From Bacteroidaceae bacterium (GTDB lineage: Bacteria > Bacteroidota > Bacteroidia > Bacteroidales > Bacteroidaceae), in the NCBI GenBank assembly GCA_045220575.1, contig JBGUVX010000032.1, forward strand, positions 4,055 through 68,054: 64,000 nucleotides of DNA. The letters are read 5' to 3'. The position numbers were made by a program, and so were the translations under genes. A model generated the notes under the pieces. The model worked only from the letters and a program-made list of their open reading frames with translations. It searched no databases and was not told the origin of the DNA. Shown piece by piece: positions 15,442 to 52,237 of this stretch (position 1 is its first letter; every line of letters starts with the position of its first letter).

Positions 15442-15539
15442 TAAAGTTTAAAGTTTATGGTTTAGAGTTTAGAGGCTTGGTTTTTCAATTTTCACTTCTC
15501 ACTTCTCAATCTTCAATTTTCAATCTTCAATTATTTAAT
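15442..15539. repeat. Heptamer-phased tract (14 words)
   Basis: TAAAGTT TAAAGTT TATGGTT TAGAGTT TAGAGGC TTGGTTT TTCAATT TTCACTT CTCACTT CTCAATC TTCAATT TTCAATC TTCAATT ATTTAAT. It fills the spacer between the stop at 15531 and the fumarate hydratase start at 15438. Confidence 0.85.
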
Positions 15540-15956: not shown

Positions 15957-15990
15957 TTAATTAAAAATTAAAAATTAAAAATTAAAAATT
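15957..15990. repeat. (AAAAATT)x4 heptamer tract
   Basis: TTAATT then four perfect AAAAATT units, located between divergent -7 boxes. Confidence 0.9.
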
Positions 15991-28227: not shown

Positions 28228-28319
28228 AGTGCCATAGTATGAAACTACCCAGTGCCATAGTATGGTACCAAGTAGTGCCATAGTATGGAACAGCCCAGTA
28301 CCATAGTATGGCACTTTTG
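28228..28319. repeat. Four 23-bp phased units with the palindromic core GTGCCATAGTATGG(C/T)AC
   Basis: AGTGCCATAGTATG starts at 28228, 28251 and 28274; AGTACCATAGTATG starts at 28297. The next unit contains ACGACGTGTTGC (28323-28334) and a GCGAAGC-TAC-GCTTCGC hairpin. Confidence 0.9.
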
Positions 28320-28427: not shown

Positions 28428-29351
28428 ATGAGGACGAGAATCGTTTACAACAACGCCGTGCCTGCTGCCATCCTGCGGCGCTACGAGCAATACCTGAGAC
28501 TGGAGAAATCGTTCTCCGTCAACACGCTCGACGCCTACCTTCGCGACCTGCAGAAGCTCATCAACTTCTATGCACAGCGAGGCATCGACTTCCGCACAGT
28601 TACCCTTCAGCAAATCGACCAGTTTGCCGGCACGCTGCTCGACAGCGGAGTGACGCAGAAGACCATCGCCCGCATCCTGGCTGGCGTGCGTTCGTTCTAC
28701 AAGTTCCTGCTGTTGGAAAAGGAGATAGAGACCGACCCTACGGAGCTGTTGCCTTTTCCCAAGCGAGGTCTCTATCTACCAGAGGTGCTTTCCCTCGATG
28801 AAATCGACCGAATTGAGAAAATCATAGACATTTCGAAGGAGGAGGGCGTGCGCGACCGTGCCATCGTGGAAACGCTGTACAGCTGTGGGTTGCGCGTGTC
28901 GGAGCTTTGCAACCTCACCTTCTCGAACCTGTTTCTGGAGGAAGGCTACATCCACGTGCGCGGCAAGGGTAACAAGGACCGCCTCGTACCCATCTCACAG
29001 ACCGCCATCGACGAACTGCGACGCTGGTTCGTCACACGGCAGGGCATCAACGTGAAGCCGGGCGAGGAGGATTTTGTCTTCATCACAAAGCGAGGCAGTC
29101 GCATGAGTCGCATCACCGTCTTCCACAACATCAAGCAATACGCCCAGGCGGCAGGCATCCAGAAAGAAATCTCGCCCCACACCTTCCGACACTCCTTTGC
29201 CACCCACCTGCTGGAACGCGGCGCAAACCTGAGCGGCGTGCGAGCCATGCTGGGGCACGAAAACATCTCAACAACAGAAATTTACCTACATCTCAACCGT
29301 CAACACCTGCGCGAGGAAATCCTCACCTGCCACCCCCGTAACAAGAAATAA
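28428..29351 (+). CDS. xerD: Tyrosine site-specific recombinase XerD
   Basis: 307 aa with SAM-like N-domain motifs (NTLDAYLRDL). The catalytic region has ...GLRVSEL..., HTFRHSFATHLLERGANL, LGHENISTTEIYLH. Confidence 0.88.
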   Translation: MRTRIVYNNAVPAAILRRYEQYLRLEKSFSVNTLDAYLRDLQKLINFYAQRGIDFRTVTLQQIDQFAGTLLDSGVTQKTIARILAGVRSFYKFLLLEKEIETDPTELLPFPKRGLYLPEVLSLDEIDRIEKIIDISKEEGVRDRAIVETLYSCGLRVSELCNLTFSNLFLEEGYIHVRGKGNKDRLVPISQTAIDELRRWFVTRQGINVKPGEEDFVFITKRGSRMSRITVFHNIKQYAQAAGIQKEISPHTFRHSFATHLLERGANLSGVRAMLGHENISTTEIYLHLNRQHLREEILTCHPRNKK

Positions 29352-29381
29352 ATCGTGGGCTGCAGGCGGGCTGGTTTCTTG

Positions 29382-30404
29382 CTAATAAGGCTTGCGGTAG
29401 CGGTCCTCGTCCTTGTCGTCGAGCATTCCTAAATAAGAGGTATAGCGGCTCTGGGCGATGCGTCCCTCCTCCAAGGCCTGCAGGACGGCGCAGCCAGGTT
29501 CGTGGGTGTGGGTGCAGTCCTGGAAACGGCACTCCTGCCCGATAGTGAAGATTTCGCGGAAATAATGTCCCACCTCCGTGCGTTCGATGTCGAAGGTGCC
29601 AAAGCCCTTGATGCCCGGCGTGTCGATGAGACTGCCGCCCGTTGGCAGGTCGAAGAGTTCGCTGTAGGTGGTGGTGTGCTGCCCGGTATCGTGGGAAAGG
29701 CTGATTTCCTCCGTTCGCGCCTTCAAGCCGGGAATGAGGGCATTCAGCAGCGTGCTCTTGCCCACACCGCTGTTTCCGCTCAGCAGGGTGGTCTTGTCGC
29801 AGAGCAACTGGGTAAGCGGCGCTATTCCCTCGCCCGTAAGTGCCGAGCAGGGCACGCAGGTATAGCCAATTGCGCTATACAGCTCCACCAGTTGACGCAT
29901 GCGATTCTGCGCCATTTCATCATAAATATCGGTCTTGTTGAAGACCAGGATGACAGGCACCCTGTAGGCCTCTGCAGTAGCGAGGAAACGGTCAACAAAG
30001 GTGGTGCTGGTTTCCGGGTGGGCAATGGTGACGAGCAGCAGCACCTGGTCGACATTGGCAGCCAGGATGTGGCTTTGCTTAGAAAGGTTCGAGGCCTTGC
30101 GGATGATGTAGTTACGACGGTCGCAGATGTCGGTTATCAGCCCGACAAGTTCTGAGTTCAAAGTGCTGAGTGCTGAGTTTCCGCTGCCATTAGACGTTGA
30201 ATCCTCCGAACTCTGAACTCCCAACTCCGAACTGGCCGCAATATTAGCGGCCTTAAATACTACCCTGTCGCCCACGGCAACAGGATTGGTGCTGCGAATG
30301 CCGCGAAGGCGGAAGTTGCCCTTCACCTTGCACGAAAAAAGCTGGTCGTCGTCCGTGCGGACAACGTACCAGCTTCCTGTGTTCTTGATGACTGTACCAA
30401 TCAT
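29382..30404 (-). CDS. rsgA: Ribosome small-subunit-dependent GTPase A, with a 28-aa in-frame repeat insertion in the OB domain
   Basis: OB domain (VAVGDRV), circularly permuted GTPase motifs ([19 protein letters not shown]) and a Zn knuckle ([16 protein letters not shown]). The extra segment [28 protein letters not shown] is encoded by 30149-30232. Confidence 0.9.
30149..30232. repeat. 84-bp palindromic heptamer element inserted in frame in rsgA
   Basis: Left arm GTTCTGA GTTCAAA GTGCTGA GTGCTGA GTTTCCG. Right arm TCCGAAC TCTGAAC TCCCAAC TCCGAAC, which is the reverse complement of GTTCGGA/GTTGGGA/GTTCAGA words. 12x7 nt = 28 codons. Confidence 0.8.
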
Positions 30405-30964
30405 TAGACGGTCATGATTTCCTTCTCCTTGGCAGCGAGCAGGTCCTCAATCTTCTTGATGTACCTGTCGTGGAGCTTCTGCAGCTTGTCCTCGGCATCC
30501 TTCTCGGCATCCTCGGCAAGGCCGTCCTTCACGCCCTTCTTCAGTTTGTCGATAATCTCGCGACGACCGTTGCGCACGCTCACCTTGGCCTGTTCCTCCT
30601 CCTTGCCGCACTGCTTCACGAGCTGCTTACGACGCTCCTCCGTGAGAGGGGGAATGTTGATGCGAATGATTTCGCCGTTGTTCTCAGGCATAATGCCCAG
30701 GTCGCTGTCGATGATGGCCTTTTCGATGATGCGGAACATGCTCTTGTCCCAAGGCTTGATGGCAATGGTGCGGGCATCGGGAGTGTTCACGGCTGCCACA
30801 TTGTTCAGGGGAACCATAGAGCCGTAGCTGTCAACACGAATGTTATCCAGCAACTTAATGTTAGCCTTCCCGGCACGAATGCGAGCCAATGCATCCTCGA
30901 GATACATCACGGTTTCCTCGAAGCGCTCTTCCGCTTCGTTCAGAGTCTCTTTTACGTCTATCAT
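30404..30964 (-). CDS. frr: Ribosome recycling factor
   Basis: 186 aa with typical RRF sequence ([22 protein letters not shown]...[14 protein letters not shown]). TAATG overlap with rsgA. Confidence 0.95.
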
Positions 30965-30989
30965 AGCATTATTTTTAGAGTAATTTGTG

Positions 30990-30997
30990 CAAAAATA
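30990..30997 (-). promoter_or_regulatory. -7 box TATTTTTG for frr-rsgA
   Basis: Reverse complement of CAAAAATA; 26 nt upstream of the ATG at 30964. Confidence 0.55.
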
Positions 30998-31000
30998 CGA

Positions 31001-31049
31001 AATAATTCTTAATTCTTAATTCTTAATTCTCAATTTATTTGTATTTTTG
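31001..31049. repeat. Heptamer tract (CTTAATT words)
   Basis: AATAATT CTTAATT CTTAATT CTTAATT CTCAATT TATTTGT ATTTTTG. The last word overlaps the VTC -7 box. Confidence 0.85.
31042..31049 (+). promoter_or_regulatory. -7 box TATTTTTG for the VTC cluster
   Basis: Perfect TAnnTTTG, 10 nt before the ATG at 31060. Confidence 0.5.
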
Positions 31050-31059
31050 TCCCGAATCT

Positions 31060-31854
31060 ATGGTGAAAAACAAGAATATAGACGAACGAATCGGGACTTT
31101 GGTTAACGAATTGGAACCGATTACGTTGGAAGAGATGTCGGGCATCAAACTGATGAACCGCACGGATACCAAGTTCGTCACCAACAAACAGCATCTGGCC
31201 CGACTGCTGGAACTGGCTCAGGGCAAATACTACGCCCAGGAGACCAACGACACCCGCATTGCCGAATACATCACAACGTATTGGGACACAGACGACTTGG
31301 AATACTATTTCCAGCACCACAACGGACGCGCGCCGCGACAGAAAGTGAGGGTGCGCACATACGTGGGCAGCGACCTTACCTTCCTGGAAGTGAAGACCAA
31401 GAACAACCACGGGCGGACGAAGAAGAAACGCATCGAAGTGCCCAGTCAGGAGGTGGCAAAGGTGAAGGCCGAGGCCGATGAGTTCCTGATGCACAGGGCA
31501 AACCGCACGCTGGACGACATACACCCCACGGTGCAGAACCATTTCCATCGCATCACCCTGGTCAACAAAGGAAAGACGGAACGCCTGACCATAGACTTCG
31601 ACGTGGAGTTCCACAACTTCGAGACCAGCGACGAGAAGCAGACCGGCGACTTGGTCATCATCGAACTGAAGCGCGACGGCAACGTGCCCTCGCCCGTGCT
31701 CGACATCCTGCGCCAACTGCGCATCAAGCCCTCCGGCTTCAGCAAATACTGCATCGGCTCCGTGATGACGAATCGCGGCCTCAAGCACAACATGTTCATG
31801 GAGAAGATGGTGTGGATAAACAAACTGGTTGGAAAACCGTTGGGAACTGAATGA
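31060..31854 (+). CDS. VTC-domain (polyphosphate polymerase-like) protein
   Basis: ATG at 31060, 11 nt after a -7 box. RTDTKFV, VRVRTYVGSDLTFLEVKTKNNHGRTKKKR and VIIELK resemble the bacterial VTC (PF09359) family as I recall it. Confidence 0.7.
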   Translation: MVKNKNIDERIGTLVNELEPITLEEMSGIKLMNRTDTKFVTNKQHLARLLELAQGKYYAQETNDTRIAEYITTYWDTDDLEYYFQHHNGRAPRQKVRVRTYVGSDLTFLEVKTKNNHGRTKKKRIEVPSQEVAKVKAEADEFLMHRANRTLDDIHPTVQNHFHRITLVNKGKTERLTIDFDVEFHNFETSDEKQTGDLVIIELKRDGNVPSPVLDILRQLRIKPSGFSKYCIGSVMTNRGLKHNMFMEKMVWINKLVGKPLGTE

Positions 31855-32589: not shown

Positions 32590-32635
32590 TTAAGAGTTAA
32601 GAGTTAAGAGTTAAGAATTAAAAGATAAATAAAGA
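32587..32635. repeat. Heptamer tract (GAGTTAA words), inverted relative to 31001-31049
   Basis: TAATTAA GAGTTAA GAGTTAA GAGTTAA GAATTAA AAGATAA ATAAAGA. It spans exactly from the DUF4956 stop to the next ATG. Confidence 0.85.
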
Positions 32636-35406: not shown

Positions 35407-35452
35407 AACCTCCCCCAGAGCCGATGAATAAAGGGCTCGCGAGGGGGAGGTT
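35407..35452. repeat. G-run hairpin H1 (perfect 10-bp stem AACCTCCCCC / GGGGGAGGTT)
   Basis: The loop contains GCCGATGAATAAAGGG and the stem is followed by TTTATTTG. Related to H2 at 35608-35664. Confidence 0.75.
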
Positions 35453-35607
35453 TATTTGTAAAGGTCACCCAGACCTCACCTAAACCTCCCCGCTTTGATT
35501 TGATTGCTCCAAAGTGTAAATCATTGATTTTCAATTACCCCGTTTTTGATATAGTCCTTAATCGGAGGGGAGGTTTGGGGGACTTTTGGGTGAGGTTTGG
35601 AGGCAAA

Positions 35608-35664
35608 CCTCACCGCCTCCAGCCCCGATAAATAAAGGGAAGGGGGAGGTGAGGAGGTGTTTTT
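35608..35664. repeat. G-run hairpin H2 (CCTCACC...GGTGAGG), related to H1
   Basis: The loop contains CCCCGATAAATAAAGGG and the stem is followed by GTGTTTTT. Confidence 0.65.
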
Positions 35665-49875: not shown

Positions 49876-49920
49876 AATTTAATTAAAAATTAAAATATTG
49901 AAAATTAAAATTTGATTTGA
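49876..49920. repeat. Heptamer tract (TTAAAAA words)
   Basis: ...TTAAAAA TTAAAAT ATTGAAA ATTAAAA TTTGATT TGA. It lies between the pyrH stop and the CoA-transferase promoter. Confidence 0.75.
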
Positions 49921-49924
49921 GGGC

Positions 49925-50635
49925 TCAATTATGCACGAGCGTACCTATTTCCTCGCCTGCCATCACCTTCTTCAGGTTGCCGACGATGTCCATGTTGAAG
50001 ACGTAGATGGGCAGGTCGTTCATCTTACACATGGTAGTGGCTGTCAGGTCCATCACCTTCAGACCGCGGTTGTAAATTTCGTCGTAGGTGATTTCCTTGA
50101 ACTTCGTAGCCGTGGGGTCTTTCTCCGGGTCGGCGGTATAAACGCCATCTACACGTGTTCCCTTCAGCATCACGTCGGCCTCAATCTCTATGCCGCGAAG
50201 CGAAGAGCCCGTGTCGGTAGTGAAGTAGGGATTGCCTGTCCCGCCACTCATGATGACCACCTCGCCGCGCTCCATTGCCTCGATGGCCTTCCATTTAGTG
50301 TACAGCTCGCCGATGGGTTCCATGCGGATAGCCGTCAGCACCGTCGTCTTTTGTCCGATGGCTTGCAGGGCACTGCACAGGCCCAGCGAGTTGATGACGG
50401 TTGCCAGCATTCCCATCTGGTCGCCCCTGACGCGGTCGAAGCCCTTGCCGGCTCCAGTCAGACCGCGGAAGATGTTTCCGCCTCCGATGACGATTCCCAC
50501 CTGGACACCCATGTCCACTACTTCCTTAATCTGACGTGCATAGTCGTTCAGACGGTTCACGTCGATGCCATAACCCTGTTCTCCCTGCAGGCTCTCGCCC
50601 GAGAGCTTCAGCAGAATTCTCTTAAACTTTGCCAT
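49925..50635 (-). CDS. pyrH: UMP kinase
   Basis: 236 aa. RILLKLSGE, VIGGGNIFRG, TGNPYFTTD. Confidence 0.96.
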   Translation of the reverse strand: MAKFKRILLKLSGESLQGEQGYGIDVNRLNDYARQIKEVVDMGVQVGIVIGGGNIFRGLTGAGKGFDRVRGDQMGMLATVINSLGLCSALQAIGQKTTVLTAIRMEPIGELYTKWKAIEAMERGEVVIMSGGTGNPYFTTDTGSSLRGIEIEADVMLKGTRVDGVYTADPEKDPTATKFKEITYDEIYNRGLKVMDLTATTMCKMNDLPIYVFNMDIVGNLKKVMAGEEIGTLVHN

Positions 50636-50677
50636 AATATCTTAATTCTTAACTCTTAATTTTTAATTCTTAATTTG
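50636..50677. repeat. Heptamer tract (TAATTCT words), inverted relative to 49876-49920
   Basis: AATATCT TAATTCT TAACTCT TAATTTT TAATTCT TAATTTG. It encodes the birA C-terminal KLRIKN plus stop, and the whole birA-pyrH spacer. Confidence 0.85.
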
Positions 50678-52017: not shown

Positions 52018-52237
52018 CGACGTGTTGTTAACGATAAGACGACGTGTCGTATCCTTCGAAGCGACGTGTCGTTAGTTTAAAAGGATAATTATCCGACATC
52101 GATAGGATAATTATCCGATGGCATTAACATAATTATCCGTTTGTGATAGGATAATTATCCTGTTTTGAAAAGATAATTGCACGAGTAAAGCAACGATACG
52201 TCGCTTGGAGGCAAACAACGTGTCGCTCCGCCTGTTT
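52018..52237. repeat. Ten contiguous 22-bp phased units: 3x CGACGTGT(C/T)G, 5x (G)GATAATTATCC-type, 2x ACGT(G)TCGC-type
   Basis: Units start at 52018, 52040, 52062, 52084, 52106, 52128, 52150, 52172, 52194 and 52216. The perfect 12-bp palindrome GGATAATTATCC occurs at 52083, 52105 and 52149, with degenerate copies at 52127 and 52171. Confidence 0.9.

Follow-up and report, generated by a model that had tools for sequence, protein, structure and literature searches.

How does the reading frame of a ribosome-assembly GTPase come to hold a run of heptanucleotide repeats? The question is raised by a 64,000-nt stretch of DNA from a Bacteroidaceae bacterium (contig JBGUVX010000032.1 of assembly GCA_045220575.1), referred to here as the window, in which the gene rsgA contains an 84-nt (12 x 7) quasi-palindrome translated as 28 additional residues. 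An earlier note, made from the letters alone, had read this segment as an insertion-like palindromic element able to land in coding sequence, and had linked it to the heptamer tracts seen at gene junctions. We favor, with a probability of roughly 60%, the interpretation that the 84 nt are an inverted pair of heptanucleotide simple-sequence-repeat arrays lying in frame in rsgA, and that they belong to the same class as the heptamer-armed hairpins found between genes in this lineage. Two observations underlie this interpretation. In this Prevotellaceae lineage 7-nt tandem arrays are the dominant short repeat, often arranged as a purine/G-rich array, a short centre and a pyrimidine/C-rich complement, and the OB loop of RsgA is a hotspot that repeatedly carries heptamer arrays in different species and strains.

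Seven-nucleotide periodicity of the rsgA element

On the plus strand, positions 30149-30232 read as the heptamers GTTCTGA GTTCAAA GTGCTGA GTGCTGA GTTTCCG CTGCCAT followed by TAGACGT TGAATCC TCCGAAC TCTGAAC TCCCAAC TCCGAAC, and both the sequence and the translation of the open reading frame (ORF) agree with the in-frame element and peptide quoted in the earlier note. In mRNA sense, two arms enclose a centre (Table 1), the arms being degenerate and made up of mixed words. Tandem Repeats Finder delineated period-7 arrays at 30162-30178 (2.4 copies, 100% match) and 30204-30233 (4.3 copies, 82% match), and an inverted-repeat search returned arms of 23 nt at 30148-30170 and 30204-30226 with 78% complementarity, while the outer arms, of 28 nt each, are complementary at 20 positions (71%). 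As sense RNA, the 84 nt fold from base 1 to base 84 at -28 kcal/mol with a z-score of -2.9 (1 of 200 shuffles), and the z-score reaches -4.6 when the adjacent GC mini-hairpin is included (111 nt). This mini-hairpin, which in strain L090 has the same stem with one loop base changed, is at chance level when taken alone, and the fold of the 84 nt as plus-strand single-stranded DNA is not significant (z -1.5).

The expectation that the arms would be more complementary than shuffled controls was upheld in one respect and not in another. The entire 84 nt are self-complementary at 50 of 84 positions, as compared with 22.6 +/- 5.7 in dinucleotide shuffles, none of 2000 of which reached this value; when whole heptamer words were shuffled instead, the same best inverted-repeat score was obtained in 200 of 2000 trials (10%), indicating that much of the palindromy stems from the presence of two word types complementary to each other. 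When the peptide was recoded synonymously, the picture for the hairpin was comparable, its energy being reached by 229 of 1000 recodes. The lag-7 match of the insert, on the other hand, was 0.57 vs. 0.36 +/- 0.05 for the recodes and was reached by none of 1000, and the 7-nt periodicity is a property of the DNA and not a by-product of the peptide. Cumulatively, the word-shuffling and recoding controls identify the 7-nt periodicity, together with the two mutually complementary word types, as the robust nucleotide signal. It was considered whether mismatches recur periodically in the hairpin because stop codons are avoided; this proved only partly true, in that the reverse complement of GTTCAGA yields an in-frame TGA; the combination GTTCGGA/TCCGAAC would nevertheless be both fully complementary and stop-free, so the constraint of the ORF does not force the mismatches.

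The boundaries of the element are not those of a clean 84-nt insertion, as the net gain relative to the nearest insert-free relative amounts to 30 aa and residues of the flanking strands differ too. In a MAFFT alignment with this relative (locus L082; related loci are designated by L numbers and RsgA homologues by P numbers), the element centre at 30180-30194 (TCTAATGGCAGCGGA / TCTAATGGCAGCGG, SNGSG) aligns with the turn GATAATGGCGATGG (DNGDG), the two having AATGGC plus GG in common. The alignment is no more than suggestive of a centre that represents the ancestral beta-turn, in which case the arms may be the result of growth to either side of the original turn and not of the arrival of one block. 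No direct repeat was found at the insert boundaries, where the sense flanks are ...GCGGCCA and TTGTCGG..., and no further copy occurs in the window at up to 2 mismatches in 14 nt, the related matches being ordinary heptamer arrays of other words. Rfam gave no family, either at gathering thresholds over the whole window or in E-value mode around the insert, and a terminator and promoter scan of 29300-31100 found nothing at the insert and no terminator-like T run. A protein search with the duplicated insert peptide, which is an insensitive test, returned 5 word-sharing candidates, none of which scored.

The same 84 nt are present in L001 (a Logan assembly) and in L090 (ENA), the latter from a second strain with 98% protein identity, and the presence of the insert in three independent assemblies rules out an assembly artefact. 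When window positions 30149-30232 were compared with L090:504-587, the inserts were identical, whereas 27 of 720 downstream rsgA positions (3.8%) and 7 of 135 upstream positions differed.

Position of the insert and loop alleles of relatives

The host gene product corresponds to RsgA/YjeQ, a family with an OB domain at the N-terminus, a circularly permuted GTPase domain and a zinc-binding region at the C-terminus, as determined by its Pfam domains (RsgA_N, PF16745, residues 3-54; RsgA_GTPase, PF03193, residues 93-269), by PDB sequence matches, of which Thermotoga YjeQ (1u0l, E 7e-58) is the top one, and by fold, the AlphaFold2 (AF2) model resembling the RsgA structures 7boi, 2rcn and 5no2 (Foldseek 7boi_W, E 3e-23). 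The insert occupies the last beta-hairpin loop of the OB domain. Residues 55-84 have a predicted local confidence (pLDDT) of about 28-30 (<50) and no secondary structure in the model, in which OB strands 47-52 and 88-93 are intact on either side; the 28-30 extra residues are thus predicted to form a disordered loop rich in Ser, Asn, Gly and Glu that joins these two strands. RsgA is anchored to the 30S subunit by its OB domain, and in E. coli RsgA helix 44 is contacted by the beta1-beta2 loop (PMC5499641), which is not the loop that bears the insert.

Considering the 70 GTDB species loci in which the stretch from GD to RRNY was found (the source organism, an uncultured Prevotellaceae MAG from gut or rumen that the records label Bacteroidaceae, is not among the GTDB representatives), this stretch generally measures 14-22 aa, mostly 18-20, and has the form xVxIxPxxDGxTALIxxIxD, as compared with 49 aa in the window; L002 (45 aa) and L067 (36 aa) are long exceptions. 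It is short in most of a set of 117 close homologues as well, and the nearest insert-free relatives, P0003 and P0004 (89% core identity), have FVDNGDGTGLIAEVCN at the site within the same frr-rsgA-xerD synteny. The statement in the earlier note that a short turn is usual here is therefore correct, most aligned orthologues having no equivalent loop.

Loops of 23-72 aa were nevertheless found at the OB site in 23 of the 117 close homologues, each of which has an insert-free relative at 79-92% core identity, and the insert-bearing alleles are scattered on an RsgA tree built without the loop. The insert peptides are unrelated in sequence, charge and length (23-72 aa), even within one species, and the strand that flanks them keeps the consensus VGLIT(D/E)I. 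At the DNA level most of the orthologous inserts have a lag-7 match of 0.43-0.74 and consist of arrays of varying words (Table 1); the 5'-arm word of the window is that of L084, and its 3'-arm word is the TCAGAAC-type word found at the insert end in L088 and L095. Recent horizontal transfer of the insert together with a VGLITDIL cassette was considered and rejected, because synonymous sites of the flanks differ widely between insert-bearing species.

The variation between strains that had been anticipated was observed in other species, where loops differ by whole units and alleles diverge at about 97% flank identity, but not in the source species, the only two known strains of which have identical 84-nt inserts. 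In L084, L091 and L086 the flanking rsgA DNA is about 97% identical, and 95-100% right up to the loop, yet the loops are 81, 132 and 216 nt long (27, 44 and 72 aa) and unalignable, L091 and L086 differing by one exact 84-nt indel. Because it is only in the loop and about 27 nt beyond that L084 and L091 diverge, allelic recombination within the species may have contributed. Alleles of the P0043 cluster differ by 21 nt (DVMVKGE), a single 90%-identity cluster comprises alleles of 19, 27, 32, 44 and 72 aa, and L092 and L093, with 93% DNA identity in downstream rsgA, have loops equal in length and unrelated in sequence. All observed length changes are steps of 21 and 84 nt, i.e. multiples of 21 nt, and none of the cluster members that were read (a few tens of sequences) had a frameshift. 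In-frame heptamer arrays also occur in a second surface loop of RsgA, the LP..IDTPG loop of the GTPase domain, in L014, L016, L012 and L018; the array of L014 (L014:2921-2954) is a perfect (CAACTCT)x5 that encodes TTLNSQLSTLNS, and that of L016 lies at L016:5686-5711.

Heptamer arrays and heptamer-armed hairpins between genes

Of the periods 4 to 15, only 7 is represented in the window by arrays of at least 4 copies, and it accounts for 14 of the 15 such arrays in the related loci (833 kb). At a laxer threshold, 52 period-7 arrays were counted in 885 kb as compared with 0-3 for each other period from 5 to 11. The A/T-rich arrays of the window at 15959, 31003, 32590, 49881 and 50635 (Table 1) lie directly upstream of promoter-like TAnnTTTG boxes of the Bacteroidetes type (e.g. 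those at 15959, 31003 and 49881) or of start codons. The array site upstream of frr, which is occupied in many species, has AAGAATT in the window and AATTCTT in L052, and L052, L092 and L084 have other words or the opposite orientation there.

The junction between frr and rsgA, the first two genes of the order frr-rsgA-xerD-like recombinase gene, was compared in the 60 loci in which frr was found adjoining rsgA. Fewer than 45 nt separate the two genes in 45 of these, with a stop-start overlap in several, including the window, L028 and L029. In the remaining 15 the spacer measures 75-224 nt, and at least 11 of them have a strong hairpin (z <= -3) immediately before the rsgA start. Five spacer hairpins have arms composed of heptamer arrays, namely those of L027 (4880-5003; z -10.4), L047 (1300-1433; z -8.7), L060 (4900-5003; z -8.6), L002 (z -5.8) and L040 (z -3.0); they are near-perfect, 94-143 nt long and placed exactly between the frr stop and the rsgA start. 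The arm words, such as GAATGAA/TTCATTC, GGTTAGR/CTAACCY, GAATTAT/TAATTCA and similar ones, are species-specific, and related species differ in the presence of the hairpin, L027 having one where L028 and L029 show the stop-start overlap. Similar heptamer-armed hairpins occur at L004 2455-2600 and in L074.

The spacer and intergenic hairpins and the rsgA element are alike in their arms of four-unit type, centres of 19-70 nt and arm polarity. In all 11 array pairs examined, that of rsgA included, the purine/G-rich arm is 5' and the pyrimidine/C-rich arm 3', a property that does not depend on the strand. The rsgA insert thus matches the intergenic class of the lineage in unit length, arm size, centre size and polarity, which, together with the dominance of period 7, supports the link to gene-junction heptamer tracts drawn in the earlier note. 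Two array pairs, that at 15442-15531 (z +0.27) and that in the L088 spacer, were evaluated as hairpins and dismissed, as they fold no better than shuffles.

Outside the lineage, metagenomes of soils, sediments, waters and guts yielded more than 120 contigs with (GTTCNGA)x3, their GC content ranging from 36 to 74%. An inverted partner is present within 200 nt in 11 of 120 contigs, with the same polarity in 10 of the 11. In L210, from an unrelated bacterium with 64% GC, the inverted pair (GTTCGGA)3...(TCCGAAC)2 at L210:3490-3575 is in frame and translated as 31 aa; the protein is a kinase with the domain order GAF-HisKA-HATPase_c-REC-REC, and the pair lies in the linker that joins HATPase_c to the first receiver domain. 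An in-frame pair of this kind therefore also exists outside this rsgA.

Spacer DNA of this kind also seems to affect gene calling. Some rsgA calls at L084:2533-2700 and L091:1501-1660 (P0030 and P0008) have an extra N-terminus of about 50 aa (MRSEKLTPLPSSPEGEGEP...), whereas MEGVIIKN is the start in other calls of the same rsgA protein cluster. The extra residues seem to be a translation of the spacer element, and the frr-rsgA repeat and hairpin DNA thus seems to mislead the choice of start codon. Some rsgA calls in the group begin downstream of the loop.

Origin of the insert

If the 84 nt are a pair of simple-sequence-repeat arrays, such arrays would owe their origin and their changes to replication slippage, a process that preserves the frame only in three-unit steps, with a contribution from ectopic or allelic recombination and possibly from template switching between arms. 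In the permissive loop, survival would be restricted to arrays that are free of stops and have a frame-neutral number of units, and arrays would persist at the OB loop of RsgA because it tolerates any stop-free filler. The palindrome would then be a by-product of the repeat class, with no selected structure in rsgA, and the window copy, with its 71% arm pairing, would be an old, degenerate version that no longer slips readily.

Several observations weigh against this interpretation. The related loci were picked through rsgA, so that the sample is centred on this gene. The arms of the element differ consistently at word position 5 (R opposite A), which excludes a simple recent template-switch copy. 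Among the loop alleles, a significant hairpin was found only in that of the window, the others being mostly single-orientation or direct arrays. That the same loop and GTTCNGA-type words recur in separate rsgA lineages could be due to common ancestry combined with recombination, or to a process specific for a site or sequence. Under neutral evolution, the two strains would show no difference in the insert with a probability of about 0.04, and identical inserts, which are unlike a hypermutable tract, could point to constraint or a recent sweep. Finally, no intermediate allele with a single arm or fewer units was found for the source species.

We also considered whether the insert could instead be a small mobile palindromic element of the type of Rickettsia palindromic elements (RPEs), repetitive extragenic palindromic (REP) sequences or MITEs (miniature transposable elements with inverted repeats), inserted in frame and with related copies in the frr-rsgA spacers of relatives. 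The end-to-end fold, a length that is a multiple of 3, presence or absence of the insert between relatives at 78-92% identity, the scatter of insert-bearing alleles on the RsgA tree, and the occurrence in some species of discrete hairpin blocks exactly between the frr stop and the rsgA start, which overlap in other species, are all as such an element would have it; like an RPE, the insert is palindromic and in frame, and the host fold would be kept, judging from the modeled OB strands 47-52 and 88-93. Against this stand the lack of a second copy in the 64-kb window and of terminal direct repeats or a target-site duplication, arm words and centres that differ in every species and locus without a shared consensus, orthologous loops made of single or direct arrays, indels in 21- and 84-nt steps, flanking strand residues that are replaced as well relative to L082, as in an unclean insertion, and a peptide search, insensitive as it is, that found the insert in no other protein. 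We regard a mobile element as unlikely, and the discrete insertion element of the earlier note is not borne out, given the single copy in the window, the boundaries devoid of direct repeats and the words that vary by locus and species. Quite unlikely, too, is a role at the RNA level, in which the hairpin would separate the expression of rsgA from that of the highly expressed frr, serving as a barrier, a processing site or an attenuator, and would be the counterpart of the spacer hairpins of relatives. Such a role is consistent with the strong hairpins that precede the rsgA start in 11 or more of the 15 loci whose spacer is at least 45 nt long, with the fact that in the window, where frr and rsgA overlap, the sole hairpin lies 170 nt into rsgA (z -2.9 to -4.6), and with the identity of the insert in two strains that differ at 3.8% of sites. 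However, synonymous sites add nothing to the fold, which 229 of 1000 recodes match; the loop inserts of other species lack a significant hairpin; L002, L084 and L088 have both a spacer element and a loop insert, so the one does not substitute for the other; there is neither a terminator-like T run nor an Rfam match; and ribosomes unwind translated hairpins.

Selection at the protein level, by which a Ser-rich flexible extension of the OB hairpin would modulate 30S binding and the periodicity and palindromy of the DNA would be incidental, accords with the recurrence of inserts at one structural position next to a strand that keeps VGLIT(D/E)I, and with the anchoring of RsgA on the 30S subunit by its OB domain (PMC5499641). 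We find it improbable, as the 7-nt periodicity exceeds that of every synonymous recode, the peptides of 23-72 aa are unrelated even within one species, the loop is predicted to be disordered, and most species have no insert. A contingency (phase-variation) tract, in which gain or loss of a single 7-nt unit would switch rsgA off and on, might be suspected from the perfect 4.7-unit tract within L084 rsgA and from the hypervariable heptamer tracts of the lineage; it is highly improbable, for the arms in the window are degenerate and not homogeneous, and all alleles seen are in frame (21- and 84-nt steps; a few tens of sequences). A more far-reaching idea, which we consider rather unlikely, is that heptamer-armed hairpins constitute a self-extending class of DNA structure, in which a seed hairpin grows outward in 7-nt units by slippage and arm template switching and colonizes loops of essential genes, and in which the RNA hairpin may tune the frr/rsgA ratio. 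It would explain why the arms stay complementary while the words change between species, why the purine/G-rich arm is always 5', and why such hairpins recur at junctions such as frr-rsgA. If true, the class would occur in Prevotellaceae and in many other bacteria with GTTCNGA pairs, and the OB loop of RsgA would be hypervariable between strains.

Relation to known repeats

RPEs, which Ogata et al. are said to have described in 2000 as selfish palindromic DNA lying in frame in protein-coding genes, form families of 100-150 nt with hundreds of similar copies per genome. The rsgA element resembles them in being palindromic, of a length that is a multiple of 3, and translated as an extra surface segment with the host fold kept; it differs in being present once in 64 kb, in lacking a shared consensus, and in its tandem-heptamer arms and repeat-like dynamics (21- and 84-nt steps). 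Extragenic palindromes of the type of REP and bacterial interspersed mosaic elements (BIMEs) stabilize mRNA between genes of an operon, and the spacer hairpins of relatives are likewise placed between the highly expressed frr and the weakly expressed rsgA. They differ from REP and BIME palindromes in having heptamer arrays as arms and no conserved REP consensus, and the window copy is intragenic.

The closest resemblance in unit and arrangement is to the heptamer repeats of other bacteria. Heptameric repeats are the most over-represented or abundant long simple-sequence repeats in many prokaryotes, and slippage related to the polymerase footprint has been proposed for heptanucleotide repeats (Mrazek et al. 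2007, as cited in PMC4679880 and PMC4692102). In Xanthomonas, GGGAATC arrays mostly have four units and occupy the same intergenic sites in related species with extensive variation in length and sequence (PMC4692102), and 70-75 convergent array pairs per genome could form stem-loops or cruciforms (Rehm et al. 2015, PMC4692102); the arrays of Nostoc consist of GGGGAYT (PMC4692102). Those of the present lineage share with the Xanthomonas and Nostoc repeats the 7-nt units, about four per array, the close opposite-strand pairs able to form stem-loops, the same intergenic positions in relatives with variable length and sequence, and the over-representation of period 7. In contrast to them, the words here (GTTCNGA, GAATGAA, GGTTAGR and others) do not form G-quadruplexes (G4) and vary between loci, and the rsgA copy is in frame within a gene, the Xanthomonas and Nostoc kind being under-represented in coding regions. 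Short tandemly repeated repetitive (STRR) heptanucleotide repeats are known from Calothrix PCC 7601 (as cited in PMC4692102), and TAACTGA repeats from Beggiatoaceae, Cyanobacteria and some Bacteroidetes (PMC4679880). Our arrays are similar to both in that tandem heptamers are mostly intergenic, often just upstream of starts, sporadically distributed and occasionally within genes; unlike these families, with one dominant word per genome, many words coexist here and hairpin-forming pairs are prominent. We found no report in the literature of such heptamer arrays in Prevotella or Prevotellaceae.

Features of the window and of related loops

The window has a base composition of 53% G+C. The features discussed above are collected in Table 1 together with the other heptamer arrays of the window and the arrays of the orthologous loops.

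Table 1. Heptamer arrays and associated features in the window and in RsgA loops of relatives
Feature	Position	Strand	Remarks
rsgA (ribosome small-subunit-dependent GTPase A)	29382..30404	minus	340-aa ORF; start overlaps frr stop (ATGA)
In-frame quasi-palindrome, 84 nt (12 x 7)	30149..30232	minus	Translated as 28 aa, RsgA residues 58-85
3' arm (mRNA sense) TCAGCAC TCAGCAC TTTGAAC TCAGAAC	30149..30176	minus	C-rich array, encodes 10 aa
Centre, 28 nt, sense GGATTCAACGTCTAATGGCAGCGGAAAC	30177..30204	minus	Between the two arms
5' arm (mRNA sense) GTTCGGA GTTGGGA GTTCAGA GTTCGGA	30205..30232	minus	G-rich array, encodes 10 aa
Perfect 6-bp GC mini-hairpin GGCCGC-N7-GCGGCC	30234..30252	minus	Adjoins the heptamer arms on their 5' side; encodes AANIAA
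Purine-rich (AGAGTTT) and pyrimidine-rich (TTYTCAA) arrays, 7 nt apart	15442..15531		Between convergent genes; same arm polarity
(AATTAAA)x4.6	15959..15990		Directly upstream of TAnnTTTG box, minus-strand gene
(TAATTCT)x4.7	31003..31035		Divergent frr/VTC promoter region; flanked by two outward-facing TAnnTTTG boxes; same repeat class
(GTTAAGA)x4.6	32590..32621		Short spacer between two co-directional genes
Array similar to (AATTAAA)x4.6	49881..49910		Upstream of TAnnTTTG box
(TAATTCT)x5.7	50635..50675		Directly upstream of minus-strand gene start (MAKFKRILLKLSGESLQG)
Loop of L084 (P0030)			Perfect (AGTTCAG)x4.7
Loop of L094 (P0010)			(GAACTCG)x8; insert ends in TCGGAAC-type array
Loop of L093 (P0027)			(GTGCAAA)n
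Loops of L091 and L086 (P0008, P0009)			(GTGATGG)-like arrays, then (TCNNNAC)n arrays
Loop of L088 (P0043)			(GTGAAGG)n, then (TCAGAAC)n
Loop of L095 (P0102)			(CAAGGAA)3, then (ACTCAGA)n

Three additional repeat clusters were noticed in the window. At 28228-28315, upstream of the xerD-like gene (28428-29351), there are four copies of AGTGCCATAGTATGG at 23-nt spacing, each with a CCATA-N-TATGG palindrome. An imperfect inverted repeat of AAACCTCCCC and GGGGAGGTTT motifs (59-nt arms, 71% complementary) extends over 35433-35625, a region with no ORF of at least 80 aa and no Rfam match; C-rich/G-rich hairpin DNA of similar appearance fills the frr-rsgA spacers of L084 and L091 and the rsgA loops of L002 and L067. 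The intergenic region 52040-52225 contains four perfect palindromes GGATAATTATCC, 22 nt apart and flanked by three CGACGTGTCG; it looks like an operator or origin-like cluster, and TTATCC resembles half of a DnaA box.

Significance

Heptameric repeats are over-represented in bacteria, largely unexplained, and regarded as intergenic. The rsgA locus shows that this class, including hairpin-forming pairs, can be carried in frame by an essential ribosome-assembly GTPase. The loops provide a natural allele series for studying the origin of 7-nt arrays, the role of array pairs in RNA structure, and the tolerance for filler of an OB-fold loop by the decoding centre. They also offer strain markers and are at the same time a trap for gene callers and aligners, as evidenced by long N-terminal extensions and by starts placed past the loop. 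For the Prevotellaceae, which are major gut and rumen bacteria, the findings reveal genomes rich in heptamer arrays at promoters and gene junctions, heptamer-armed hairpins among them, in which such arrays alter the length of one RsgA loop by tens of residues even among strains with about 97% identity in the remainder of rsgA.

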